Part shown: positions 23,447 through 46,939 of the stretch, piece after piece
Layout of the letters: every line of letters starts with the position of its first letter
Numbering within the stretch: position 1 is the stretch's first letter
Origin: a virus
Lineage: Duplodnaviria; Caudoviricetes
IMG/VR virus record: IMGVR_UViG_3300047409_000596
Coordinates: 1-62,251 of that record
DNA length: 62,251 nucleotides
Direction: 5' to 3' (one strand)
Notes under the pieces: generated by a model
What the model was told of the DNA's origin: nothing
Databases searched by the model: none
What the model saw: only the letters and a program-made list of their open reading frames with translations
Made by a program: the position numbers and the translations under genes

Positions 23447-24826
23447 TCACTGCGTAAGAATCACGAAGGGACTCTGCGTAAACGTCCCGTCACTGAGCGT
23501 CACGGGGTTGTTGAGCCAGCTTCGTCCGTCCATGCGGGCGATGAGGCGCCACATCATTTGATTCGTGGTGAACCGAGGGATCTGGCTGGCCTCGATTTGC
23601 AGTTCCATCCGGTCGCCGATGACGTAGAAGGGGAAGCAGAAGCAGCCGATGCAACCCGTGGTTCCCAGGGCAGGCAGCTTGTCGGTGATGAACAGGGGTC
23701 GGCCGAGCAGCTGGGCGGTGAACTTGTTTTGTACCGGGCCGGACTCGGACGGGGGCGCGGGGTTAAGCCAGACCAGCCGGCCGGCGCCGGAGCCCGCCGA
23801 GTTGTCCGTCATCTGAAGCAGTTGCGGCAGAACGCTCGGATGAGCCAGCCAGATCACGTCCTGCCAGTTGAGGTAGTAGACCTTGCTGAGCATCGTGGCG
23901 ATGTCCGCGAAGCGCACACTCGATGCCGCCGCCCGCGTGACCTGAAGCGTGGCCGGCGAATTGAGCACGCCCAGCGGCATGCTGTTGCCGGCGCCGCGGC
24001 CTTGCAAGAAGGCGTAGTCGCTGAACCAGGCCAGCGCCTGCTTGAACAGCTGCGTCAGAAGGGCGTCGAGGGCCACCCCGTTGTCGGCCAGCAGCTGATT
24101 CGACGCCACGCACAGCATGACGAGGTCCCAGGCGGTCAGCTCCATCTGCCGGAACGTCGGTTCGGATTCGCCGATCGTCGACGCTTCAGGCTGCCACTGG
24201 GCGAAGATGCCGCCGAGCTGGGGTGGCGTGCCCGCAGCCTGCGCCGTGGTCACGTCCAGGGTGGGGATCGTCAGAGTCCGCGTCGTCATCGGCATGACGG
24301 TGGCGTACTGGCGAACGATCGCCTCTTCCACCGCGATACGAAGCAGGTTCTGCGAGAACGCGGGCGGGACGATGTAGCCGCCCGTCACGCCGGAGCCCTC
24401 GGCAAGGGCCGCCTTCGTGACGTGGCCCCAGGCGTTCTTGCGCCCCCCTTCGGGGACGTGCATGGCCGGCGACCAGCCGTCCTTTTCCAGTTTGGCGAAG
24501 TCGGGACGCCCCAGGTTCGGATTGGCCCCCTTGGCGACCTCGCACAGCGCCTCGCCCATGCCGACGCCCTTGAACAGGGGGCGCCGACCAGGAAAGAGCG
24601 GATCGTAACCGCCCGGCAAACTGAACTTGCGGTAGCCGGCGCCGTCGTTGCCGGCCACCGCATGGCCGGTCATCAGCGCCATCACCTGCTCGGGCGAGAG
24701 CATGGTGTTCGAGGCGACGCCGGCCTTGTTGGCCGGCGTCTTGAGGGCAGAGATGGCCTTGTCCATCGCGCCCTGACGTTCGATGATCCGATTGACGGCT
24801 TCCGCCAGTTCGGCGATTTGCGACAT
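23447..24826 (-). CDS. Major capsid protein, HK97 fold, with N-terminal delta/scaffold region
   Basis: GGYIVPP, SNQLLAD, PLGVLNS, FTTNQMMWRLIARMDG. Confidence 0.92.
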   Translation of the reverse strand: MSQIAELAEAVNRIIERQGAMDKAISALKTPANKAGVASNTMLSPEQVMALMTGHAVAGNDGAGYRKFSLPGGYDPLFPGRRPLFKGVGMGEALCEVAKGANPNLGRPDFAKLEKDGWSPAMHVPEGGRKNAWGHVTKAALAEGSGVTGGYIVPPAFSQNLLRIAVEEAIVRQYATVMPMTTRTLTIPTLDVTTAQAAGTPPQLGGIFAQWQPEASTIGESEPTFRQMELTAWDLVMLCVASNQLLADNGVALDALLTQLFKQALAWFSDYAFLQGRGAGNSMPLGVLNSPATLQVTRAAASSVRFADIATMLSKVYYLNWQDVIWLAHPSVLPQLLQMTDNSAGSGAGRLVWLNPAPPSESGPVQNKFTAQLLGRPLFITDKLPALGTTGCIGCFCFPFYVIGDRMELQIEASQIPRFTTNQMMWRLIARMDGRSWLNNPVTLSDGTFTQSPFVILTQ

Positions 24827-24907
24827 GGCAACTCTCTTCTCTGATCGGGTGCGGGTTTCCGAGGCCCGCGCCCTGCCCCCTGCTCTGTTCCAGCCCGCCC
24901 GCAAGAG

Positions 24908-25019: not shown

Positions 25020-28000
25020 TCAGATCCGCGTTCCCGTCAACTTGAAGAACTCTCCGGCCGTCCGGTCGAACGCCCCGTTAAGCTTCGCCAGGGCGTCAGA
25101 GAGGAGTTTTTCCTCGCGCTCCTTCTCCTTGTCGTCCTCGTCCGGTTTCTCGCCGTCTCCATCCTTGTCCGGCTTGTCACCGTCGCCGTCCTGATCCTGA
25201 CTCTCGCCCTCTTCCTTCGGCCAGCCGAAGTCGTGCTCCCTGTAGTCCGCGCTGGCCTTGCGCCAGACACCGACCGTCTGCTTGATCGCCTTGACAATGG
25301 GCGGATGTTCCTGCATCGGCCCGTGTTCGTCGATCGCTGCCTTGATCGCCTTCGTCATCGTGACCCCGGGCGGACAGCCCTTGTCCTGCTGCGCATCATC
25401 CTTGCCGCTTTGCGGCTTGTCTGTCAAACTGCCGCCCGTGGCCGCCGCTGCTTCGCTGAGGTCTTTCAGGCGGGCCAGGGTCTTTTCGTCGTCACCCACC
25501 TTGCCGAACGCCGTCAGTTGGCGCTGTGCAAGCGTCTCGTGCCTGTCATGCGACTTGATGATGTTCGTGATCTCTTTTCGGGTCGCGCGCTCCACCGCAC
25601 TCTTGACTTTGGCGGGGAGCAAATCGATGAGCGTCGTCACAAACTTCAAGAGTCCGTTCTCTGAAATCGCAGACTTGTCGGCACACCGCGCACACGTTCC
25701 ATTCTTGCCGGCCACGTTCTTCACCTCCCCATTGCTCGCCGCGGGCGGTGCCTCTTCGTTTGGCTTTTCGGATTTGGGATTTGAGGTTTGCGTGCAGTAG
25801 ACCACCTCGCAGCCGTCGTCGAGGGCCTCCCGCCGCGCCGTCTCGGGCTGACAATCGGCCGGCTCGAACTGGATGAATGCCCAGGCGTCGCCGGCGTCCT
25901 CCATGTCCGAGGCGTCGAGGCCAGTCTGCTGGACGTAGGAGGCCGCCTCTTCGGGCGTGGCGTAAGTCGCCTTGGGGCAGAGCACGGCCTGGATGGCTTC
26001 GCCGTTGGCGGGGGCGGGCTGTTGCTCCTGCTGCTGCTGGCCGGGTTGCTGCTGGGCAGCAGGGGGTGATTGCTCGCCTTGCTTTTCGCGTCGCTTCCGG
26101 GCCCGTTCTTCGCGTCGCCGTGCCAGCCCTGCCTTCAATTCCACGGCGCCCATACGCTTCTCCTCTTCTTGTTCCGGAGCTTCGGCGAACGCGGTATCGT
26201 GGGCTTCGTCGAATCGTTCCTGCATCAATCGCGGGAATTCGGCTGCCGCTTCCTGGCAGGCTTCCAGGTTGCTGCGGAACTCATTGATGAGCGAATCCTG
26301 GACTTCATCGTCCTCACCCTCTTCGACCGCGTTGGCATAAGCCAGGAAGCTTTCCCGTGCTTGATTGATCGCATAGTTCAGATCCGAGGCCAGGGCTTGT
26401 GTCATCTCGTGAAAGTCTTCGGCGGCCTGTGGAGCCAGGTCTTCCACGTAATCACCCAGCTCCTCTGTGAGCATGGTCGAGAAGTGCTCATAAAAACCAC
26501 TGGCGTGCTCATTCACGGCGGCTTGCATTGCCTCGAACTGGTGATCGACTTTCTCGGCAGACTCCGAAGCATTGCCAGCGTCCAGGCCGTCGAAGGCCGA
26601 TTCCATCGAGGCAAGAAAGCCAGACGCGACCGAAGCCCCCTTGTCCGGCGAATCGGAGCCGAATGTGGCCTCTTCTTCGGACGGAGCGGAAGCACCTGAT
26701 CCGCTCTCGTCCCCCTGCCCGGACTTCGGCAGTCCTACAATGGGCCGCCCCTCGTCATCCTTGCCCTGTTCAACAAGCCGGCCCGTATTGACCAGGCCGT
26801 CAATCACCTGCTCGGCTTGCGCCCGGTCCACATCCTCGGTGTCCGTGGCGTAAAGCACGGCCGCTTCCCAGTTCAGTTCGCCGTCTGGAGCATCCGCCAC
26901 GCCAGCCAGAACAGCGTCCCGCGCTTCGGGGTAGAAGTCGGCCGGACCGCCGCCGACCCGGTATTCTGTCTCGCCGGACTCGTTGCGCGATTCCTCCAGA
27001 TAGCCATCATGAACAAGTTCCTCGACAATCGTGCCGGCGTCGTCGCGGGACAAATCCTCGTCCGCATCCATCGCCGCTAACACCGCCTGTTCGCGCGAAA
27101 TAGAGTCGTACTCCCGTGCTTGGTCAATGACGGAAACGGCGGAATCGGCCAAACTCGTTGACGACCCGCTGCCACCAGTAGACGGTTTCTCCTTGCCGCT
27201 CCCGCCCTCGTCCCCCTGCCCCGACGGCTTGCAGTGGCCCGCCTCGTCGCGCGGGCATTCACCGAAGTAGCTCTCGCCGCCCTTGCTGATCACGCCCTGT
27301 CGCTTCAGCAGCCGCCACGTCCGACCCTTGGCATAGCTGGCCAATTGATCCGGCAGCGCCCGCCGGCGCAGACCGCTGCCCGCGGACGTCGAGGCAATGA
27401 GCCGTCGTTGCTCCTTCACCTTCTCCAGCGCCTCGACCACGGCCGTAGGGAAGTCCTTGCCCTCTTCCTCGTGGAGCACGCGCGCGAAGTGGCATAGCTC
27501 GTAAACGTGTGCCCCCGAGTAGCCGGCCGTGCCGCTTACGGCCGCGGCGAGGTCACTGCCGGCCAACTCCGGGAGCCACTTCCCTATCATCGCCCTGCGA
27601 ATGGCGTCGTCGGGCAGACCGAAATTGAGGACGTCGTGGAAGCGGCCGGGGCGGTCGATGAGGGCCTCGGGCAGGCGCTCCGGGAAGTTGGTGGTCAGGA
27701 TCGTCCACACGCCCTTGTAGCGGCCGATACCGTCCATCTCTGTCTTGAGCAGGTCGACCGAGTACGAGTCGAGCCAGTGGTCGACGTCCTCGAAGAACAG
27801 CACCGTGGGAGACAGTTCCCGCGCCAGCTCAAAGGCGTAGGAGAAGCCGCCGAACGCCCCGGAGCGGTAAAAGTCCGCTGTGGAAATCCAGACGAACGTG
27901 GCATCCACCTCGTTGCGCAGCACACGACCGCTAAGCGTTTTTCCGGTTCCCGGCGGACCGAGAAAAATGGTCCCGCGGTTGGCGAACTTCTCCTGACGGT

Positions 28001-29357
28001 CGTTCAGTTGCTTCAGCGTCAGCGACAGCTGCCGGGTGATCTTCTCGGGCAGGAAGATGTCCTGCCACGTCTCGCCCGTCTTCGGCAGGAACTCGCCGGA
28101 CAGGGCGAACGCTTCGCCCTTGAGGTAGTTGTGCCGCTCCTTCGTCGCCGTCCAGGTCTTGTCCAGCAAATCAAGACCCCGCTGCCGTTCATCGGCGCGG
28201 GTGTAGAGCGTCAGCCCCAGGCCGTACCAGGACTTCGACAGTTCGGCCACGGCGCGGAAGGGGCCTTCGAGAAAGACCAGGCCGTCGACCAGGAAGTCCC
28301 GCGTCTTCTCGCTGTTGAGTCGGATCACCTCGTAACGGGGCGGCGACTCACTGCCGCTGCCGTTGATGTTGCGGACGTCCGTCTTCTTGAAGGGCGCGGT
28401 TTCTTCTTCCCAGGCCGACAGGAAGCCGCCCAGCTTTGCGGCGGGAACATGGGTGGCCGATTCGTAGACCTCCTTGATCTGCACGCCGAGATGCCGGGCC
28501 ACGAAGTCATAAACCACGCTGGACGGCCGCAAGTCCTGATTGCTGATATCGAAAGCGGGAGAGTCGTCCTCCTGGAACTTCACCGTGGCACCATCCTTCG
28601 CACTATCGCCCGTCTGCCACAGCCTTCTACGCAGCCGGTACGGCTCCATGCCCTTGGCCAGCGGCTCCGCAATTTGCCGGCCTGCCAGGCGGTTCTTGCC
28701 CAGGACCATCGAGACGGTTTCTCGGTTGCAGGGCACGAAACACACAGCCCATTCGACCACTTCCCATTCCGTGAAGTCAAAGCCGGGGAAGTCGAAGGAC
28801 ACCTCATCGCGGCTCATACCGCCCTGTGGCTCCGCAAAGTCGAGCCGACGTGCCAGGTGAGGGATGAATCCCAGACTCGCGCCCTTCAGCACCTTGAGCG
28901 TGACCAACTCAAACGCTTGCTCACTCAGTTCCGTCGACAAGTGGAAATGGGCCGTCGAGGTGATGCGGTCCGCGGCAATATCCCACGAGAGAGGGCCCTC
29001 TCCGGGTCCGGCACTGGCAATAGGCATCTCGACTGCTTGCGTCAGATGGTTGTACGAGATGACGTTGTTGGCCCGGTAGCTGTCCAAGTATTTGCGGCAG
29101 CCGGCGGGCCGGACGACGTCGCCGCTGCGGTCCTGGGAGACGACGCTGACCGTAAACGTCGCTGTTGCCTTGCTCTCGCTGACCGCATCGACGTCGAGTC
29201 CTTCCTCGCGGTTAGGTAAGAGGACCAGGCCATCCGCCTCGCGCTGGCGGGCGAAGCGGGACGCACGGGACAGGGCGGGGTGGGCGAGGTCGCCCGAACG
29301 CAGGACGGCGTCCAGGCGCTTGCGGCGAAGTGCCAGAATGTCGGCGATGGCAGACAT
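25020..29357 (-). CDS. HK97-type prohead protease fused to an AAA+ ATPase and acidic domains
   Basis: DRSGDVV, YNH, GASLGF, EWAVCFVPCN (protease); GPPGTGKT, FFEDVD, TTNFP, RPGRF (AAA+). Confidence 0.85.
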   Translation of the reverse strand: MSAIADILALRRKRLDAVLRSGDLAHPALSRASRFARQREADGLVLLPNREEGLDVDAVSESKATATFTVSVVSQDRSGDVVRPAGCRKYLDSYRANNVISYNHLTQAVEMPIASAGPGEGPLSWDIAADRITSTAHFHLSTELSEQAFELVTLKVLKGASLGFIPHLARRLDFAEPQGGMSRDEVSFDFPGFDFTEWEVVEWAVCFVPCNRETVSMVLGKNRLAGRQIAEPLAKGMEPYRLRRRLWQTGDSAKDGATVKFQEDDSPAFDISNQDLRPSSVVYDFVARHLGVQIKEVYESATHVPAAKLGGFLSAWEEETAPFKKTDVRNINGSGSESPPRYEVIRLNSEKTRDFLVDGLVFLEGPFRAVAELSKSWYGLGLTLYTRADERQRGLDLLDKTWTATKERHNYLKGEAFALSGEFLPKTGETWQDIFLPEKITRQLSLTLKQLNDRQEKFANRGTIFLGPPGTGKTLSGRVLRNEVDATFVWISTADFYRSGAFGGFSYAFELARELSPTVLFFEDVDHWLDSYSVDLLKTEMDGIGRYKGVWTILTTNFPERLPEALIDRPGRFHDVLNFGLPDDAIRRAMIGKWLPELAGSDLAAAVSGTAGYSGAHVYELCHFARVLHEEEGKDFPTAVVEALEKVKEQRRLIASTSAGSGLRRRALPDQLASYAKGRTWRLLKRQGVISKGGESYFGECPRDEAGHCKPSGQGDEGGSGKEKPSTGGSGSSTSLADSAVSVIDQAREYDSISREQAVLAAMDADEDLSRDDAGTIVEELVHDGYLEESRNESGETEYRVGGGPADFYPEARDAVLAGVADAPDGELNWEAAVLYATDTEDVDRAQAEQVIDGLVNTGRLVEQGKDDEGRPIVGLPKSGQGDESGSGASAPSEEEATFGSDSPDKGASVASGFLASMESAFDGLDAGNASESAEKVDHQFEAMQAAVNEHASGFYEHFSTMLTEELGDYVEDLAPQAAEDFHEMTQALASDLNYAINQARESFLAYANAVEEGEDDEVQDSLINEFRSNLEACQEAAAEFPRLMQERFDEAHDTAFAEAPEQEEEKRMGAVELKAGLARRREERARKRREKQGEQSPPAAQQQPGQQQQEQQPAPANGEAIQAVLCPKATYATPEEAASYVQQTGLDASDMEDAGDAWAFIQFEPADCQPETARREALDDGCEVVYCTQTSNPKSEKPNEEAPPAASNGEVKNVAGKNGTCARCADKSAISENGLLKFVTTLIDLLPAKVKSAVERATRKEITNIIKSHDRHETLAQRQLTAFGKVGDDEKTLARLKDLSEAAAATGGSLTDKPQSGKDDAQQDKGCPPGVTMTKAIKAAIDEHGPMQEHPPIVKAIKQTVGVWRKASADYREHDFGWPKEEGESQDQDGDGDKPDKDGDGEKPDEDDKEKEREEKLLSDALAKLNGAFDRTAGEFFKLTGTRI

Positions 29358-29404: not shown

Positions 29405-32400
29405 TCAGTCCTCCGAACCGTTACTGGCCTCGCGCTCCTGCCAGGCCTCGTCCAGCAGTGCCTCTTCCTCCGGAGTCAGGTCGATCTCTTCGCGCTGCTC
29501 TTCCTCGGCCGGACTGTTCATGGCGACCCGACTCTTCTTCCAGTGCTTCTCAGACTTTGCCGCGGAGCCGCGCTTCGCCAGGTACGCTTCCAGTACCTGC
29601 CGTGAACGATGCCCTTCGCGCAGGTCGAAACGCGCGTCCAACAGATCAACGCCCTTCTCCTTCCAGAAGTCGCGGCCCTCCTGTGTCTCCATGATGTCCA
29701 GAACGCTTTTTGCTTTCGGGAACTTCTCGCGGACCTCTCGCATTAGCCCGGCCCCGTTTTCGACTTCCAGGGAATCAAGCGTCTGATCGTAGCCGAGCCG
29801 GGGCCACGTATAGTAGCCGTTGAAGGCGTTGGGATCGTCGTTCTCCGCGCGCGAGGCGTGGCAGCGGATAAAGGCGAAGCCGTTCTCGGCACACTGTTCA
29901 ACCTGACGTGCAAATATTTGAGTGCCCAGTCCGGTGCCGCTGGCGTTGATCTTGATGTACTCGTTTTCGCACACCAGCTCGCCGGCGTCGGTGCGCTTCA
30001 AAACCCGCTGCGCCGTGTAGCCGTTGCCCCTGAACGTGACGCGCAGCGATTCAGGATCAGCGGCTACCACGTTCACGGTTGCATCATCGGGCGCGCCGAC
30101 CAGCGAAGCGAAAGGAACGTCGTCAAGGCGGACGTCCTTGCCGAACACTTCCTTTGCTGCCCTTTCAACCGATTCGCGACGGCCAATCTCCACCTTCGCC
30201 TTGCTCGGTCCCAGCTTGCCCGGCTTCTTTCCGGCGGCCGGCTTGTCCGCAACCGTTGTGCTCCCACCGCCCCCGCCTCCTGACGTGAACTGTCCGCCCC
30301 CCTCGCCCGCGGGCTTGTGCTCGTGGCCGGAAGCATCGGCGGTCTTGCGGCGCGGACGCCGCACGGACTTCTTGCCCCCGGGTCGCTCGAAGCCGGGTGC
30401 GTCGGGCTCGTCGGGGTACTCCGGCTCGTCGGGCTGTTCGGGCTCATCAGGGTAGTCGGGCTCGTCTGGTTCAGCCGGGAAGTCGTAGCGTTCGCCGTCG
30501 TCCTTTTCCGGTTCGGTATCGTCCTGCTCTTCATTCTCGATTCGCTTGTCGAGGCGTTCAATCAGGTCGTCGCTGAACGCCTCTGCCTTTTCCTGGAAAG
30601 ACCCCCAGACCGTCTCACACTTTTCCAAAGCCGTATTCACCTTTTCTTCCACGGCATAGGTTCGCTCTTCCTCCTCCTGATTGCGATCGTACGCCGCATC
30701 GTACCTGGCCTGCCATACCTCCCTTTCCCGGTCGTAGCGAGCCTCGTCTTCGGGGTTGTCATCCTCAAACCCTTCGGGCTCTTCAGCCAGCAGTTGCTGT
30801 TCAGCCTTATCCGCTTTTTCCCACTTCTCCAGGGCCGCGTTGTGCTTTTCAACGGCGGCCAGCCAGCGGACGTTTACTTTTGCGATCGCCTCCGGGGCCC
30901 TGGCCGTGATGCTGTCCAGCTTTACCAGGTCCTCGTCCGTTGCTCCGATGGCGCGAAGTCTATCACCGACCAGGCCAGTAGAACCGAACACAGAGGTAAA
31001 GGCGTTTGGCTCCGACTCGGCATAGGCTTTCGCCTCGGCAAGATAGCGCTCCCGCTCTTCGGTGTTCGACTGCGGATTACTTGTGTCGAAGGGTGCCTTG
31101 GCATCCTGCGCAGTTTGTTCATCCTTGTGCCACGATCTCAATCTCTCGTCCTTGATAAGACCAACCCGCCTGGCGCGGTCCTCATCCCGCTCGTTCCAGG
31201 CGGCAACGTCCGCCTTGAAACGCGCATCAACGACCGCATAGGCTTCTTGCCAGGCGTCGTAATCGTCTGCATAACGAGCCCGCAGCCGCTCCGTGTCCTC
31301 TTCCCAGCGCACGTACTCGCGGTCGTACTCCGCTTTCTCCTTGTCGTACGCAGCCTGGATTTCATCAGTCTCCTTCTCCCAGGCCGCGTGTTCCTCGTCG
31401 TAAGCCTGCCAGTCGGCCGCGCTGTCGTCAGTCTCCTCTTCCTCTTCTTCTTCCTCTTCTTCGGGCTCCGGCGTGTCCTGTTCTTCCTCGTCGTCCTCTT
31501 GCCCACCGCCGCCGCCATCCGACGTGAACTGTCCACCCCCGGGGCCGGCCGGCTTGTGCTCGTGGCCGGAAGCATCAGCGGTCTTCAGCAGGACGGAATC
31601 GATCAGCGAGGCCGCCAGCCGGCCGTTGCCCGACCCCGCGCCGGCTGTGCCGGCTGTAGCCCCGTTAGCGGCGACACGCCCGCCAGGGACACCGTTTGAC
31701 CCGGGCAATGCTACGCGTCCGTTGCTTCCCGGCAACGCTCCGGCAGGTTGCGGGGGAGGCGTGTCGCCCGGAAACACGGCCGGCTGAAGACTGCTCGGGA
31801 TGAGCGGTCGATCACCCCAATCCTCGAACGGCGTCAGACCGCGGCGGCTGCGGATCTCGTTGGGCGTCACGGCGCCGGCCCGAAAGTCCGTGTTGATGTC
31901 CTCGTTGACCTGCTTGGGGTCGTCAGGCGTCGGATCCTCGTGCCAGATCCGAAGGGGCGGGTCGTACAGCACGCCAACGCGCCGAGAGAGCATCGAGCCC
32001 AGCGACTTCAGCCGCGGCGAGATCACAAAACGGCAGAAGAACCGCAGGGGCGCATACCAGCTCAGGTCCGTACCGATCGGCTGCGTACCCGTCAGCTCCT
32101 TGGGCACCCGCAACATGGACAGGACAAACGCCTGCATCTGTTCGGCACTGTCGAAGTACCCCATCTCTTCCGGACTGAAGCTGATCTTCGACACCTTCCC
32201 GCCGTTGCGGGTCACGATCGGCAGGCCATGCTTGTCCACGCCCTCGAAGCGCGCCCGCAGCTTGGCGTAGATACGGTCCATCTCGGCATCGTCCGCAACC
32301 CCTTCGTCCTCGGACAGTTCGATGTGCAGCCCCGGTTGCATTCCGCGGTTGAAGTGACTCCAGCGCGAGGTGTTGATCGCCTCGCTGACGTCGATGATCT

Positions 32401-33097
32401 CGGCGCCAGCCGTCAAGGGACTGTAGCCGTCGACCTTGTGCAGCGGATGCTTCTCGCGGAAATGAATCATCTCCTCGACAGGGATCATATACTCGCCGGT
32501 GCCGCCGGTGATCCCGTAGGGCGCCAGCCAAAAGCCGTCTACCAGCCGATCTTTCCCCGGGACAGCGCGGACCCACTGAGACGGAAGGACCCACATCTCG
32601 CACGGCAGTCCCGCCCCGTTGAACGGAGTCCACAGGTATCCATTGCCAGTGAGGCAGAGGAAGAGTTCCAGCTCGAAGTAGATGTCTTCCAGCGAGTCGT
32701 AAGGGTTAGGGCATTTCAGCAGCTGCACCAGCGGGTGGTCGTTCTCGGCCGGGTGCAGCTCCTCGTGGGGCCGCGGACGATTCACGGCCTTGACGCGGGC
32801 GCGCAGCGTGTGCGCGTTGACGAGGGCCACGCGGGAAGACGATTGCTCGTGGACGTAGTCGACGTGGGGCTCGTGGCGGGCCATCTCATGGGCGCGGGCC
32901 TGGATTCCAGAGTAGACGAATCCGCGATAATGGCGGGCCTGCTCCGAACGGTCTTGCGACCAGTTGCCCAGCCAGCCGTAGGGACTTGCGGAGGACATGC
33001 CGCCGATGAGCCGTTCGCCGCGCGAGCGCCGGGCGGCGAGGCGGGAAGCGGACCGTTTGCGAAGTGCCTCACGGAGGCGAAGGTCGACGATGCCCAT
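29405..33097 (-). CDS. HK97-family portal with long C-terminal extension (acidic coiled coil plus GNAT-like domain)
   Basis: HPLVQLLKCPNP, LTGNGY, EMIHFR, GYSPL, TPNEIR; C-terminal GTGLGTQIF and NGYYTWPRLGYD. Confidence 0.88.
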   Translation of the reverse strand: MGIVDLRLREALRKRSASRLAARRSRGERLIGGMSSASPYGWLGNWSQDRSEQARHYRGFVYSGIQARAHEMARHEPHVDYVHEQSSSRVALVNAHTLRARVKAVNRPRPHEELHPAENDHPLVQLLKCPNPYDSLEDIYFELELFLCLTGNGYLWTPFNGAGLPCEMWVLPSQWVRAVPGKDRLVDGFWLAPYGITGGTGEYMIPVEEMIHFREKHPLHKVDGYSPLTAGAEIIDVSEAINTSRWSHFNRGMQPGLHIELSEDEGVADDAEMDRIYAKLRARFEGVDKHGLPIVTRNGGKVSKISFSPEEMGYFDSAEQMQAFVLSMLRVPKELTGTQPIGTDLSWYAPLRFFCRFVISPRLKSLGSMLSRRVGVLYDPPLRIWHEDPTPDDPKQVNEDINTDFRAGAVTPNEIRSRRGLTPFEDWGDRPLIPSSLQPAVFPGDTPPPQPAGALPGSNGRVALPGSNGVPGGRVAANGATAGTAGAGSGNGRLAASLIDSVLLKTADASGHEHKPAGPGGGQFTSDGGGGGQEDDEEEQDTPEPEEEEEEEEEETDDSAADWQAYDEEHAAWEKETDEIQAAYDKEKAEYDREYVRWEEDTERLRARYADDYDAWQEAYAVVDARFKADVAAWNERDEDRARRVGLIKDERLRSWHKDEQTAQDAKAPFDTSNPQSNTEERERYLAEAKAYAESEPNAFTSVFGSTGLVGDRLRAIGATDEDLVKLDSITARAPEAIAKVNVRWLAAVEKHNAALEKWEKADKAEQQLLAEEPEGFEDDNPEDEARYDREREVWQARYDAAYDRNQEEEERTYAVEEKVNTALEKCETVWGSFQEKAEAFSDDLIERLDKRIENEEQDDTEPEKDDGERYDFPAEPDEPDYPDEPEQPDEPEYPDEPDAPGFERPGGKKSVRRPRRKTADASGHEHKPAGEGGGQFTSGGGGGGSTTVADKPAAGKKPGKLGPSKAKVEIGRRESVERAAKEVFGKDVRLDDVPFASLVGAPDDATVNVVAADPESLRVTFRGNGYTAQRVLKRTDAGELVCENEYIKINASGTGLGTQIFARQVEQCAENGFAFIRCHASRAENDDPNAFNGYYTWPRLGYDQTLDSLEVENGAGLMREVREKFPKAKSVLDIMETQEGRDFWKEKGVDLLDARFDLREGHRSRQVLEAYLAKRGSAAKSEKHWKKSRVAMNSPAEEEQREEIDLTPEEEALLDEAWQEREASNGSED
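30282..31585 (-). repeat. Pair of ~65-bp direct repeats (30282-30346 and 31521-31585) encoding KTADASGHEHKPAGxGGGQFTS
   Basis: Near-identical at both nucleotide and peptide level. Confidence 0.9.
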
Positions 33098-33172
33098 CCC
33101 GGCATTGTGGCCGGAATGGCGGGGGACGGGCAAACGAGGGATCAGAGGACGGGTTGGCTGACGATGTTCATC

Positions 33173-33469
33173 TCAGTTCCTGGCCGGGTGGATCTTCTGC
33201 CAGCAGTCCTCGCACACCACAAAATCACACTCTTCAAGAGACACCGGGCCAAAGTGACTTTCCCTCTCTGTCACGGCGTCTTCGTCCGAGCGGCCCTTCT
33301 CGAAAACACCATGACAGAAGGCACAGGTGAATTCGTTTGGACTCGGAGCAGGTGTCGCCTCGGCCGCAATGACAGGCTGAAGCAGGTTCATTGACCCGCG
33401 CCAGCGGCACAGCGCACTGTGGCCGAACGTTGCGCCACAATGGGGACAGGGTTCGTTCGGTTTGTTCAT
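33173..33469 (-). CDS. Small Cys-rich protein
   Basis: CPHC, CAFC, CEDC motifs. Confidence 0.55.
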   Translation of the reverse strand: MNKPNEPCPHCGATFGHSALCRWRGSMNLLQPVIAAEATPAPSPNEFTCAFCHGVFEKGRSDEDAVTERESHFGPVSLEECDFVVCEDCWQKIHPARN

Positions 33470-33488: not shown

Positions 33489-34811
33489 TCAAACCCCGAT
33501 CCATGCCCGCTTCCGGTTTTTCTTCAGCACACTCACGACGTAGCGCATCGCGTCCGCGCAATGAAACGAGTGCGGGTCTTCCAGTTTGTCCGTAGGCTCG
33601 CCTCGTTCGTCCAGTTCATAGCTGTACGTCTCCAGTTCATTCCGCAGCTCGGTCAGATCGTCGAACACCAGGATCTGATTGAGCCGAAACGCCGCGTACA
33701 CGCGGTCAATGCCCGGCTCCACCCGGTCCAGGTCCGGCTCTTTCACCGGCAAGCCCGCGGCTTTGAAGGCGTCCCGCCAGCCCTGTTCGATGCGGGGGGC
33801 TCCCCCCACGGCGGTCGGAATGCCGCGTTCACCCTTGAGCAACTCCTTGACGTGTTCAGCCGAACTGCGGTTGCCGGCGTGGTACTCGCGATAGGCGTAC
33901 ACGCGGCCCGTGGGCAGCTTGGGACCGCCGAGGCCGTCATGGGGTTCGGCCATCTCCTCGGCGAAAAACACGGCGGCCGTGTTGACCGGACCGAAGTCGA
34001 GGCCCACCCAACGGGGCCAGTCAGAGGGCAGGGGGAAGCGAGGGACGACGTGCAGGGCGGAATCGAAGCAGTCGTAGACCAGACCGGGCGGGCGGGTGAA
34101 GAGGCCCTCGTAGGCCATGCTGAACTTCCAAGGGGGCATTGTCTTCTTGGCACGGTCCCACTCCGCGCGGGGAAAGGAGGGGTTGTCAATGGACCGAAAG
34201 TTGATGATGTCGATGTAAGGGTGGTTCTTTTTGGCCTGCTCCCAGAGATCGTAGAGCTTCTGCTTGATCCAGCCCAGATCATAGGGCCGAGTGGTCAACA
34301 GACACCGACCCTCGTTCAGAGAAAGACGGCCCTGAATGGCATCCCAGGAAGCGGCGCGGAACCCCTTCTGACCGGCCTCATCCAGCCAGGCGGCTTTGAG
34401 CGTGGCCGATTCGAGCGAGTCGGGATCGCCAGCATGACCGAGGAACACCTGGACTGGATCCAAAGGGACGTAGCCGAAGAGCCGTTTGCATCCTTTGGGA
34501 CTGAACGTGAAACAGTTCTTGGGGTGGCCGGAGAACTCGCCCAGCTTGAAAACCCGCTTGAAAAGGCGAAGGAACTCGGGCAGCACCTTCTTCTGCATCA
34601 GGGGGTAAGTCGGCGAGGCGATGAGGTAATCGCCGGGGCCACAGGCGCGGATCTCGTTCAGCATCCAGGGGGGGCCGATAACGGTCTTGCCGGATTGCCA
34701 GCCGGCCAGGACGAGGACGAACCGCTTCGTACTCTCCAGGGCCCGCCGCTGGCCGCGGTGAATCGCCATCTCGAAGTAGCCGTCAGGGGCCTGTCGCGTC
34801 TGTTCCAGCAT
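33489..34811 (-). CDS. terL: Terminase large subunit
   Basis: AGWQSGKT Walker A, AWLDEAG Walker B, GLDFG and HCADAMRY nuclease motifs. Confidence 0.93.
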   Translation of the reverse strand: MLEQTRQAPDGYFEMAIHRGQRRALESTKRFVLVLAGWQSGKTVIGPPWMLNEIRACGPGDYLIASPTYPLMQKKVLPEFLRLFKRVFKLGEFSGHPKNCFTFSPKGCKRLFGYVPLDPVQVFLGHAGDPDSLESATLKAAWLDEAGQKGFRAASWDAIQGRLSLNEGRCLLTTRPYDLGWIKQKLYDLWEQAKKNHPYIDIINFRSIDNPSFPRAEWDRAKKTMPPWKFSMAYEGLFTRPPGLVYDCFDSALHVVPRFPLPSDWPRWVGLDFGPVNTAAVFFAEEMAEPHDGLGGPKLPTGRVYAYREYHAGNRSSAEHVKELLKGERGIPTAVGGAPRIEQGWRDAFKAAGLPVKEPDLDRVEPGIDRVYAAFRLNQILVFDDLTELRNELETYSYELDERGEPTDKLEDPHSFHCADAMRYVVSVLKKNRKRAWIGV

Positions 34812-35106
34812 CGTCCGCCGAGGGAAGGGAGTTGACGAAGCGAATGCCCAGGGGGATCTCGCCGCCGTCCGGGCCACTCACGCTGGCTGCACTGAGCCGC
34901 GGGTGGATGTACGGGGCGGCGTCCTTGGCGATGGCGGCCGCGTCGTCGAACCGCTTCTTGTCGTAATGGTCGCGCATCACGGCGAGCATCACTTCGAGAG
35001 GGGTGATGCCCTGTTCGGCGGCGGCACGGGCGAGCTCCCGTTCCTTGCTCGTCTTGCTGCCCGCCTTGCGGCCGGCGCCGTCACGTTTGCCGCCGTGCCC
35101 GTTCAT
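34783..35106 (-). CDS. terS: Terminase small subunit
   Basis: GGKRDGAGRKAGSK, TPLEVML, AKDAAPYIHPRL; upstream of terL. Confidence 0.85.
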   Translation of the reverse strand: MNGHGGKRDGAGRKAGSKTSKERELARAAAEQGITPLEVMLAVMRDHYDKKRFDDAAAIAKDAAPYIHPRLSAASVSGPDGGEIPLGIRFVNSLPSADDAGTDATGP

Positions 35107-36259: not shown

Positions 36260-36852
36260 CGCTCGCTCTCCCCCTCGGCCCGGACGTTGACCGGGATGGC
36301 AGACAGATGTTTCTCCCACCGCTGCTTTACAGCGGCGCTCTGTGAAGGTACACGCTGACGATTCGGGCGCACCCAATCATTTGCCGCCCGGGAAGTTGCG
36401 ATCCAGCCAGCCGCTCGATAGATGGTTCCGGAATGAACCTCGGTATCTTGATAGGACACGAGGACGCGGATTTTCGGAAGCCGTTTCCGTATGTCCCGAA
36501 CCATCCAGCCAAGCATTCTGCTTGCAGTGTTTTTTGGTGCGTCAGGAGCAATGGCAAGGCGCCTCAGTTCCAGCCAGGTATCCTGTGGCAATAGCCTCGC
36601 TATGGGATTCGTCCAAACTGCCGTCGCATAGAACAGTCCCTTGTACTCTGCCACATAGCAGACAGAATGTACGGTTCGCAAGACGTTGGATTTTTTGAGC
36701 ACCGGGAGACGAGAATGCCACAGGCGGTTGAGATCGCAAGCCGTCTGCACTTCCACGGGACGGAAGAACAATTGGAGCGCCGAGGTCGGACTCGAACCGC
36801 CCCCTTCAGCTTGGAATAGCGGATATGCCACCCGTACACCATCGGCGCCCAT
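36256..36852 (-). CDS. mom: Mom-family (GNAT-fold) DNA adenine-modification enzyme
   Basis: LELRRL...PKNTASR...LVSYQD..HSGTIYRAAGW matches the Mom-like motif set. Confidence 0.75.
   Translation of the reverse strand: MGADGVRVAYPLFQAEGGGSSPTSALQLFFRPVEVQTACDLNRLWHSRLPVLKKSNVLRTVHSVCYVAEYKGLFYATAVWTNPIARLLPQDTWLELRRLAIAPDAPKNTASRMLGWMVRDIRKRLPKIRVLVSYQDTEVHSGTIYRAAGWIATSRAANDWVRPNRQRVPSQSAAVKQRWEKHLSAIPVNVRAEGESER
36773..36848 (-). tRNA. tRNA-Gly(UCC)-like cloverleaf inside the 5' end of the mom-like CDS
   Basis: 76 nt: GCGCCGA/UCGGCGC acceptor, U73, CCA, D-arm, UCC in an 8-nt loop, GGCGG-UUCGAGU-CCG(A)CC T-arm. Confidence 0.75.
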
Positions 36853-46365: not shown

Positions 46366-46864
46366 CGCGACTCCTTCCGGGCGAATTCGCCCCGGGCGTA
46401 CACGTTCCGCGCTCGCGCCACGGCGGCGCGGACGCTGGCCAGGGGGTCTGTCACAACCGGCGCCTTGTGGCCCGTCCACTGCCGGTCGCACGCCTTGCAC
46501 TGCCACTGCTGGCCGGAATGGGCCAGGCAGCGGCGCCGGCAGTACGGGCAGGGACTGGACGTCGTCAGCACCTCGCGCCGGTGGTTGGCCTCATTGCGGT
46601 TGAACGGGCCACCGCGCGGCCCTCGGGGTACAGGGATCACCGTCTCACCTCCCTTCTCCGGCGCAGGGCGAGCCTGCGCAGCCGGGCCAGTTCGTCGTAC
46701 ACCCAGTCGACACGGACCTGCCGCACCGGCTTCGGCCGGTTCCGCGGGTAGGGGCTCCGGTCGCGGGGATTCGGTACACGTTGCATGGCATCCTCCCGTG
46801 CATCGGCGCGCAAAACGGACGTTGGCCCGAACGCCGGGCCGTTCCGCGTGTGCCTGGTGGTCAG

Positions 46865-46939
46865 TACCGGGGGTGGGGATCGAACCCACATCAGCCAGAC
46901 GGCGTCCCGCCTGCGCCTCTCCATTTGGGCTACCCCGGC
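46865..46939 (-). ncRNA. tRNA-like RNA with the anticodon loop closed to a tetraloop
   Basis: GCCGGGG/CCCCGGU acceptor, UAGCCC..UGG..GGC D-arm, CAGGCGG-GACG-CCGUCUG arm, GUGGG-UUCGAUC-CCCAC T-arm. Confidence 0.75.

Follow-up and report, generated by a model that had tools for sequence, protein, structure and literature searches.

The product of the minus-strand gene at 29405..33133 is a portal protein extended at its C-terminus by two fused cargo modules – an acidic module of 384 residues and an acyltransferase-like domain of GNAT fold – each of which is introduced by a copy of one short peptide, here called the header. The gene lies in the 62,251-nucleotide stretch of viral DNA that was analysed (the window); its open reading frame, listed with a TTG start, runs uninterrupted for 1242 amino acids in the order portal, Gly/Pro/Ala linker, header 1, acidic module, header 2, GNAT-like domain. 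Together with this architecture, we regard as very probable a general role for the header as an N-side label of unrelated cargo modules. Fusions of cargo to portal and MuF proteins are already known; it seems to be the header grammar alone that goes beyond the literature searched.

The anchor of this polyvalent protein is identified by the match of aa 129-431 (31841..32749, minus strand) to PF04860 (E 9.8e-35), which at 120.7 bits against a curated cut-off of 39.1 places it within that family, and by matches to the portal PHROGs phrog_2662 (E 1.7e-41) and phrog_12. A linker recognised by its composition (G 19%, P 14%, A 14%) occupies aa 432-516 (31586..31840, minus strand) and leads to header 1. 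The identical fusion is found in a partial homologue of 97% identity from a different assembly (P0003) and in contigs of run X2, from a second study; these contigs (records 11 and 13) span both the portal–header 1 and the acidic–header 2–GNAT junctions. In IMG/VR the portal part has a single close relative, a 5.7-kb fragment that covers portal aa 12-119. PF04233, the MuF family, was unmatched at E<=1 in the 1242-residue protein and in six frames of the record, estimated to be 74% complete, which agrees with an earlier note on this DNA in which no separate MuF gene had been seen. The source is an uncultured soil phage.

The header is a peptide of 29 residues (KTADASGHEHKPAGxGGGQFTSxGGGGG) followed by a poly-Gly linker. 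Repeat and motif searches placed copy 1, KTADASGHEHKPAGPGGGQFTSDGGGGGQ, at aa 517-545 (31499..31585, minus strand) and copy 2, KTADASGHEHKPAGEGGGQFTSGGGGGGS, at aa 930-958 (30260..30346, minus strand), the motif TADASGHEHKPAG[P/E]GGGQFTS[D/G]GGGGG beginning at aa 518 and aa 931 and lysine standing before it in both cases (K517, K930). Two observations of the earlier note, that the motif occurs twice after the portal domain and that each copy follows a lysine, are thereby confirmed; its estimate of ~65 bp for the underlying direct repeats was too short, the segments 30263-30346 and 31502-31585 being repeats of 84 nt with 73 of 84 positions identical (87%) and a longest exact run of 26 nt. A loose six-frame regular-expression search of the 62-kb record gave these two as the only convincing copies. 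In the AF2 model the header is of low confidence and does not pack against the GNAT-like domain.

Similarity between the two copies has sharp limits at both edges of the header, and codon identity reaches 20/26 where 11.9 +/- 2.45 would be expected (z ~3.3), an excess that suggests recent duplication or gene conversion. The same codon test at four other loci gave mixed results (z 2.8, 2.0, 0.2 and -1.1), which argues that the header is conserved mainly at the protein level. As to the proposal that the DNA repeats let cassettes be exchanged by recombination, deletion alleles across the header repeats were absent from the contigs of two soil runs; since contigs lose rare variants, that result is silent on rare deletion alleles.

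The module behind header 1 (aa 546-929; 30347..31498, minus strand) was delimited by composition and is present in P0003 and in the X2 variant. With 123 Asp and Glu against 53 Lys and Arg it has a net charge of -70 over its 384 residues, in keeping with the highly acidic region noticed earlier after the first motif. A repeat with a period of 9 nt (P-D-E-P) forms its end at 30392-30494, a poly-Glu stretch at 31427-31468 is a contig break point in run X2, and the X2 variant carries a natural in-frame deletion of ~30 nt (~10 codons) near 30716-30762. No family or homologue was found for the module, a phmmer search against 201 collected proteins remaining empty when the threshold was relaxed to E<=10 and when the bias filter was switched off, and neither cargo part gave a usable match among Pfam, PHROGs and PDB sequences. 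Homology to the acidic stretches of two related proteins (P0008 and P0014) was considered and dropped on the empty phmmer result; the likeness to those stretches is therefore one of composition.

Header 2 is followed by a short basic, Gly-containing linker (aa 959-975; 30209..30259), assigned by composition and by low AF2 pLDDT up to about residue 40 of P0001 (the C-terminal part of this phage's protein), then by the GNAT-like domain itself (aa 976-1194; 29552..30208), defined by alignment, AF2 model and structure searches, and finally by a C-terminal tail (29408..29551), all on the minus strand. The tail contains a conserved acidic helix, EEIDLTPEEEALLDEAW, recognised in the alignment and as helix 290-308 of P0001 in the model, which follows 17 of 222 GNAT-like domain copies. 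From a single sequence AF2 modelled the C-terminal part poorly (pLDDT 49.9), and a model based on a 30-sequence alignment of the GNAT-like part was used instead (pLDDT 85.1, pTM 0.79). With Foldseek against the PDB, nearly all of the 43 matches listed were GNAT or other acetyltransferases (best E 1.4e-3); in a wide VIA-align search 41 of the 50 matches listed were named acetyl- or acyltransferases, the best reaching Z 7.4 with an rmsd of 4.1 over 149 residues and no chain reaching Z>=8, so that the support for GNAT is at the level of the fold. The acetyl-CoA loop Q/R-x-x-G-x-G/A is matched by the family consensus QGxGxG, with both Gly invariant across 30 sequences; in this phage's copy the loop reads SGTGLG, Ser replacing Q/R. 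Invariant in the family are G-x-G (G137 and G139 of P0001), NGYYTWPRLGYD, GRDFWK and FDL..G.RS. Four homologues match PF00583 within the domain (P0018 at 1.8e-12; P0087, P0032 and P0095 weakly), and this phage's own copy is unmatched by the Pfam GNAT family at E<=10, for which reason we call it GNAT-like and not a member of PF00583. At fold level the predicted structure of the last ~310 aa supports a GNAT core and a candidate acyltransferase, and to that extent the GNAT-like enzyme proposed earlier behind the second motif holds.

The family to which this domain belongs has no Pfam model, comprises 2346 clusters at E<=1e-3, and is represented by 222 domain copies across 158 collected proteins. 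Its partner domains include ART-PolyVal, ADPrib_exo_Tox, DRAT, Zeta_toxin, InPase, 2H, SNF2, MuF, four portal families, C39_2 and Topoisom_I. Of 43 IMG/VR ORFs with the domain, 11 contain MuF as well and 5 a portal domain (16/43 together), L025 being a near-duplicate of L023 and L016 of L015. Ten loci with a short or solo GNAT-like gene were inspected, and in five the gene lies directly 3' of the portal gene. The closest relatives (P0004 and P0005, 48-53% identity) sit on Mu-type portals, the former with HPR-flavour headers and the latter with none found. In a cargo tree of 27 rows the anchor labels need 10 changes, compared with a shuffled mean of 11.2; to judge from such comparisons, cargo passes between anchors. 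When the GNAT-like part was searched by tblastn, 50,697 phage records gave nothing at 1e-5, so no studied phage with this part is at hand; plasmids gave seven weak matches, and the one locus inspected is a hypothetical gene that stands alone in surroundings not those of a phage.

The case for the header as a general label rests on its occurrence in other phages. Its flavours include [WF]DExxHPR..G[QKR][FW], GHxHK..GGGQF and Cys variants (C..GHCKP..G), and a search of 203 related proteins with strict patterns found 132 copies, distributed over 70 of them, where 20 shuffles predict ~2.3. Position is polar: 21 copies lie in the first 60 residues of their protein, one in the last 60 and 110 internally, and the 12 residues after the header contain 26.5% Gly against a background of 9.2%. 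The commonest flavour, HPR/QPR, has one His or none. P is retained in 95/101 copies and R in 98/101. Headers are more alike within proteins (0.57) than between them (0.34), within exceeding between in 25 of 29 proteins; on this comparison flavour tends to go with the protein rather than with the cargo. Mixed flavours in several proteins (P0008, P0013, P0014 and P0165) weaken the idea of one reader per phage.

What stands behind the header varies widely, as the earlier note had supposed. Besides the acidic and GNAT-like modules of this phage, the GHEHK...GGGQF flavour precedes two ADP-ribosyltransferase modules in P0163 and, behind a lambda-type portal, a ~170-aa domain in P0166; related flavours precede InPase (pyrophosphatase), ART, PI3/4K/HipA-like kinase, NUDIX and C39-like peptidase modules. 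The settings are three: proteins anchored by a portal, MuF or protease; adjoining head-module genes whose domains are kinase-like or NUDIX; and GNAT-like genes that stand alone, in several loci directly 3' of the portal gene. The header is not obligatory, given that among 207 domain copies whose N-terminus was matched, 101 have none recognised within 130 aa upstream. In the solo proteins P0045 and P0063 it stands a few residues from the N-terminus, so its role cannot be merely to release modules from an anchor. That the header is the N-terminal part of the GNAT-like domain was also considered and dropped, 81 of 164 copies found with a looser pattern having no such domain after them.

The TerL, portal, protease-like/AAA and MCP genes form one block on the minus strand. 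Directly upstream is the large terminase (33489..34877; phrog_2, E 1.1e-27), and downstream a 1445-residue head protein (25020..29357) with an AAA+ ATPase at aa 464-580 (PF00004, E 1.8e-15) and acidic modules after it. The earlier note had spoken of a protease fusion, and here the evidence divides: a collinear homologue (P0162) has PF04586, the S78 prohead protease family, in the equivalent place (E 6.6e-24) together with the AAA domain, and the N-terminal part of phrog_617 matches the 1445-residue protein weakly (E 0.0058), but PF04586 itself was unmatched in the record at E<=1. A further homologue, P0165, matches the N-terminus of the 1445-residue protein (E 3e-20) and P0162 only weakly (E 0.014). 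From these similarities the N-terminal domain is probably related to S78 prohead proteases. Motif searches found a Cys-type header in the same protein at aa 697-721, SYFGECPRDEAGHCKPSGQGDEGGSG (27195..27269, minus strand), partly repeated at aa 879-888 (26694-26723), and in P0165 Cys-type, HxHK-type and HPR-type headers occupy places equivalent to those of the 1445-residue protein.

The HK97-type major capsid protein (23447..24904, minus strand; PF05065 at aa 175-461, E 1.3e-33) has a propeptide-like N-terminal region of ~164 aa. At aa 164-170 (24395-24415), 11 residues ahead of the start of PF05065 at aa 175, it reads KAALAEG, so the capsid junction TK/AALAEG to which the header lysines had been compared is indeed present. 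The shared pattern K.A.A.G, chosen post hoc, occurs three times in four head proteins (both headers and the capsid junction) against 0.175 expected, the two header copies not being independent. The position of the lysine before the header varies among relatives. PMC12991175, consulted on protease specificity, proved to have no bearing on S78.

The C-terminus of the portal in portal rings faces the capsid interior, and by analogy twelve copies of the extension would therefore be expected inside the head. We favour, as somewhat better than an even prospect, the explanation that header-tagged cargo is loaded or processed in the head and delivered with the DNA. Some head component would read the header as an address and/or a processing signal, in the manner of the T4 capsid targeting sequence; that the header is read during head assembly has about an even chance. 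The neighbouring S78-like protease may then cut at or near the header; K517 and K930, where the sequence is similar to the capsid junction K164/AALAEG, are possible points of cutting. Actual cutting by a head protease is a possibility that we rate rather below even. Modules so released would be free in the head and would exit with the DNA, and at an early stage of infection the GNAT-like module might acylate some target, of the host or of the phage.

The T4 capsid targeting sequence, reportedly described by Mullaney and Black in 1996, is said to be a short N-terminal peptide by which unrelated proteins are directed to the prohead, whose protease then removes the peptide. As a functional analogue it is the model that would best fit the N-side position of the header; T4, however, relies on a scaffolding core and on a protease of another family, whereas the header here is also internal, repeated and followed by poly-Gly. 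More tentatively, the header family could be a portable address label of tailed phages, with a head component that loads and trims any protein behind it, and the capsid propeptide, the portal or the protease may be put forward, no less tentatively, as candidate readers. If true, thousands of uncultured phages would possess in the header an equivalent of the T4 sequence and of the cargo-loading peptides of encapsulins; sequence alone would reveal which proteins a phage injects, and capsids could be loaded with proteins of choice. Injected proteins carried in the head are a phage's first move against host defences, and outside a few model phages they are not recognisable from sequence. A header marking cargo across portal-, MuF- and protease-anchored proteins and solo genes would supply such a rule, and would also mark a large acyltransferase-like family as probable head cargo.

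Other explanations of the header must be set beside loading and processing in the head. It could be an uncleaved docking tether to the capsid interior, the capsid propeptide or the portal, with the Gly run as a leash, so that cargo stays attached to the portal until ejection; cargo-loading peptides dock in encapsulins, and the C-terminal tail of the HK97 protease does likewise. Such a tether would account for the general pattern of a header followed by a Gly-rich leash, for solo proteins with the header at the extreme N-terminus, where cutting would release nothing, and for flavours that tend to be specific to a protein or phage, as a co-evolving receptor would predict. We nonetheless think it unlikely: in fused proteins the anchor already secures incorporation and every module is still headed, and only 1 of 132 headers is C-terminal, though a free docking peptide could use either end. 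Less likely again is action after injection, the header being a site for a host factor (a host protease, for example) or a metal- or nucleic-acid-binding knuckle on each module. That the commonest flavour, HPR/QPR, has one His or none fits poorly with the resemblance of the His-x-His and Cys...His-Cys flavours to metal ligands, and header-bearing genes cluster closely with portal, MuF and protease genes, even if the solo GNAT-like gene on a plasmid has no visible head module and polyvalent proteins must, according to the available text of PMC5512222, be split into units in the target cell.

On another reading the header does no more than keep domains apart and provide homology for module shuffling, whether as a passive, recently duplicated linker or as the scar of recombination; in its favour are the codon excess (20/26 against 11.9), the similarity that breaks off at the header edges and the cargo shuffled among anchors. 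This we judge improbable. Specific His, Pro, Arg and Phe residues would not persist in plain linkers, yet the header is conserved at the protein level in hundreds of divergent proteins, with P and R near invariant; moreover, the DNA-level excess is not general across loci, the longest exact run is only 26 nt and no deletion alleles were seen in the contigs. Scarcely credible, finally, is that the extension is absent from the virion, having been removed before assembly, or that the long reading frame is an artefact of assembly or annotation. Apart from the poly-Glu stretch that breaks X2 contigs nothing specific favours this, and against it stand the uninterrupted reading frame, the recurrence of the fusion in P0003, the X2 contigs that span the junctions and the portal or MuF fusions of the GNAT-like domain in 16 of 43 IMG/VR ORFs.

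The protein is a phage-type polyvalent protein, a known class (Iyer, Burroughs, Anand, de Souza and Aravind 2017, J Bacteriol, PMC5512222), and the modular head-delivered effector system of the earlier note corresponds, as far as the available text goes, to that published concept in essence. Like the members of the class it joins unrelated modules in one polypeptide encoded in the head module: there are two beyond the anchor, one of these cargo modules having a recognisable fold; the gene lies in the head block of a portal-terminase phage; and the modules of its relatives are those shared and shuffled in the class (ART-PolyVal, InPase, 2H, SNF2, Zeta toxin, MuF and portals). The available part of PMC5512222 describes portal fusions, two GNAT families and GNAT beside ART domains and proposes zincin-like MPTase domains as a processing device, whereas no MPTase was seen in this phage's protein. 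The terms linker, glycine and interdomain do not appear in that part, which describes neither the header peptide nor its flavours nor its position on the N side of modules; nor was a description of the peptide found in the other literature searched.

A second comparison is with the MuF polymorphic toxins of temperate phages (Jamet et al. 2017, BMC Biol, PMC5576092). These share with the present protein a head-internal anchor, encoded after the portal gene, and variable C-terminal effectors, and the GNAT-like domain is itself fused to MuF in 11 of 43 ORFs or encoded in the post-portal slot; they differ in that the anchor here is the portal itself, with no MuF domain found. The terms motif, linker, cleav and acetyltransferase do not appear in PMC5576092.

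As to the cargo, the modelled GNAT-like domain resembles AcrVA5, TacT and AtaT (PDB 6iuf, 6g96, 7ak7 and 6gtp), with VIA-align Z of 6.1 for AcrVA5, 6.1 for TacT3, 5.9 for TacT2 and 5.7 for AtaT and with the G-x-G of the acetyl-CoA loop in common. It departs from them in sequence (7-12% identity), in its extra N- and C-terminal helices and in its own motifs, NGYYTWPRLGYD and GRDFWK.

As judged from sequence patterns, the repeated header peptide is not peculiar to the window phage. Of 203 related proteins, 70 contain matches to three strict patterns (HPR/QPR, HxHK and RxPAG types), 132 copies in all, where shuffled sequences yield about 2.3; the N-terminal 60 residues hold 21 of these copies and the C-terminal 60 a single one, the other 110 being internal. 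Glycine makes up 26.5% of the 12 residues that follow a header (background 9.2%). The consensus is [WF]-[DFY]-[ED]-[PS]-[DK]-[HQ]-P-R-x(2-9)-G-[QKR]-[FW], and the flavour carried by the window reads [KL]-D-A-[ST]-G-H-E-H-K-x-x-G-x-G-G-G-Q-F.

In the window the header belongs to a 1242-aa protein (29405-33133, minus strand) whose portal domain (PF04860, aa 129-431, E 9.8e-35) leads into a Gly/Pro/Ala-rich linker (aa 432-516) and then two header copies at aa 517-545 and 930-958, which read KTADASGHEHKPAG[P/E]GGGQFTS[D/G]GGGGG. Between the headers lies an acidic module of 384 aa (123 D+E versus 53 K+R); C-terminal to the second are a globular domain of about 220 aa and a short acidic helix. Neither cargo part matched Pfam, PHROGs or PDB sequences. 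The earlier note had described the headers' DNA as a direct repeat of about 65 bp: its presence and layout stand, the description being otherwise accurate, but the length was too low, the repeat spanning 84 nt (73 identical; longest exact run 26 nt).

The head module, all on the minus strand, further comprises the large terminase (33489-34877), a 1445-aa ORF (25020-29357) between the portal and capsid genes, and an HK97-type major capsid protein (23447-24904). Between terminase and portal genes a 98-aa Cys-rich ORF (33173-33469, minus strand; CxxC...CxxC...CxxC) could, from its sequence, encode a small zinc-finger protein. The window is the entire IMG/VR virus record – 62,251 bp, linear, with a completeness estimate of 74% – and, just as the earlier note saw no separate MuF gene, this 74% complete record holds no MuF match. 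Elsewhere, ARAGORN reports two tRNA-like genes (36773-36848 and 46864-46939, minus strand) with two-base 'anticodons' and the amino acid undetermined.

The C-terminal module is GNAT-like by predicted fold and distant sequence signal, a label chosen because in the window's copy Ser stands where the acetyl-CoA loop has Q/R, and that copy has no match in Pfam. The family consensus in a 30-sequence alignment, QGxGxG, agrees with the GNAT acetyl-CoA loop, and PF00583 matches inside the domain of some homologues (1.8e-12 in one, P0018). AlphaFold on that alignment gave a model of pLDDT 85.1 and pTM 0.79, for which Foldseek against the PDB returned nothing at E<=0.001; among the matches listed (best 1.4e-3) almost all are GNATs or other acetyltransferases. 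VIA-align, which is independent of Foldseek, gave 65 chains scoring Z>=5, of which none reached 8; named acetyl- or acyltransferases account for 41 of 50 among the matches listed, headed by 3tcv_B (Z 7.4), with AcrVA5 and TacT3 at 6.1, TacT2 at 5.9 and AtaT at 5.7. The last 311 aa, used as query in an exhaustive HMMER search, matched 2346 cluster representatives at E<=1e-3 (1416 at E<=1e-10) in proteins of 164 to 3902 aa; the domain is therefore a large family for which Pfam has no dedicated model.

Relatives of this domain reside in giant multi-domain phage proteins, where its partners are ART-PolyVal, ADPrib_exo_Tox, DRAT, Zeta toxin, InPase, 2H phosphoesterase, SNF2 helicase, C39-like peptidase, type IB topoisomerase, MuF and portal domains of four Pfam families. 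IMG/VR holds 45 loci encoding it; among 43 host ORFs scanned (two loci being near-duplicates of others) MuF stands beside it in 11 and a portal domain in five. Short or solo GNAT-like genes directly follow the portal gene in five of 10 loci, a slot usually occupied by MuF. Mapped onto a tree of 27 domain copies, the anchor label (MuF or any of the four portal families) switches 10 times, where shuffling gives a mean of 11.2; cargo has therefore passed freely between anchors. The window's copy clusters with copies on Mu-type portals (SH-aLRT 93; branch not starred). In its partners and portal fusion the 1242-aa protein agrees with the class of phage-type polyvalent proteins defined by Iyer et al. 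2017 (PMC5512222), who explicitly mention portal fusions and GNAT domains beside ART domains. The portal fusion gene is a new member of an already published class. No description of the header was found in the text of that paper or of Jamet et al. 2017 (PMC5576092), though the supplements of both may hold alignments showing it; full-text literature searches with header motif strings, and with capsid-targeting terms among the papers listed, found no description either.

A search with the header alone located the window flavour in three other proteins: before two ADP-ribosyltransferase modules (P0163), after a lambda-type portal and before a domain of no assigned family (P0166), and in a relative of the 1445-aa protein (P0165). 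Because the last also carries Cys-type (SYF.EC.RD..GHCKP.GQG) and HPR-type headers, it ties the flavours together. Other IMG/VR loci combine a Mu-type portal with header, InPase, header and ART (L023), or a header with NUDIX (L034); a third (L041:2191-12237) has four consecutive genes each with a header, the first three bearing N-terminal KYSANQPRHPxGSxxGGQF and a PI3/4K/HipA-like kinase domain and the fourth encoding a GNAT-like polyvalent protein in which the header occurs four times. Header identity is 0.57 within proteins and 0.34 between them (higher within in 25 of 29 proteins), and P0004, one of the two GNAT-like relatives nearest to the window's copy, has HPR-flavour headers, while in the other, P0005, no header copy was found; flavour thus tends to go with the protein or phage rather than with the cargo. 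The header is not obligatory, since none of the recognised motifs lies upstream of 101 of 207 domain copies. Other short peptides precede the domain in P0006, P0016, P0055, P0062, P0025, P0028 and L008 – FCPTGxGGGxDPTC, NCGxGxGGFxPGNxC, GGPGSGNxGHxGRPGxVGGS, KHLPGRHDQxSHGR and W(V/I)TxxG...GP – and may be further header classes.

What might the header do? That it is a passive linker or recombination scar is unlikely, given that specific residues are conserved at the protein level across very divergent proteins. Portal rings turn their C-terminal end towards the capsid interior, so the head should contain the 725-aa extension in twelve copies. The strict N-side position of the header, its Gly leash and its presence on solo proteins encoded beside portal genes suggest that it works as a unit recognised while the head is assembled, a reading on which we are evenly balanced; by analogy, its role would resemble that of the T4 capsid-targeting sequence, which directs proteins into the prohead before being cut off.

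One hint that the header would likewise be cut comes from the 1445-aa protein, encoded downstream of the portal gene, whose N-terminal domain is probably, on homology, a divergent S78 prohead protease. The domain has a weak PHROG match, and a collinear 747-aa homologue, P0162, matches PF04586 (E 6.6e-24) with the same protease and AAA layout; PF04586 itself was not detected in the window record. An AAA+ ATPase (PF00004, aa 464-580), a Cys-type header and long acidic modules follow; a protease-AAA+ fusion is unusual in a head module. A second hint is K.A.A.G, a pattern chosen after the data were seen, which occurs exactly three times in the four head proteins, in both headers – duplicates of each other – and at K164/AALAEG, the presumed junction for capsid maturation; the Lys of the header is not fixed in position among relatives. 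For these reasons we regard cleavage of the headers by the head protease as rather less likely than not, and less probable than their being read in head assembly. The header could instead be a docking tag that stays uncut, or a signal recognised in the host once injected.

That modules have been exchanged over evolutionary time is clear from the tree of domain copies; the 84-nt repeat would be a candidate site of this exchange. The two header copies use the same codon at 20 of 26 identical residues (codon usage of the head genes predicts 11.9 +/- 2.45), which suggests a more recent origin or stronger homogenisation than selection on the protein alone would produce; the same test at four other loci gave z of 2.8, 2.0, 0.2 and -1.1. 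Soil metagenome runs contain DNA near-identical to the window, and contigs of two of them keep both copies in place. The deletion alleles between the repeats that the earlier note envisaged did not appear there, no contig joining the two copies, with rare variants invisible in contigs.

No relatives of the acidic module were detected among 201 collected proteins. It tolerates length changes, since natural variants – a 97% identical partial homologue (P0003) and one soil run – have lost about 30 nt (about 10 codons) in frame at 30716-30762. After the GNAT-like domain comes the conserved acidic helix EEIxLxxEEExALxxAW (29408-29551, minus strand), present after 17 of 222 domain copies and predicted to be helical (pLDDT about 84-92). 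At the end of the acidic module a 9-nt-periodic direct repeat (30392-30494, 7 copies) encodes PDEP-type tripeptide repeats.
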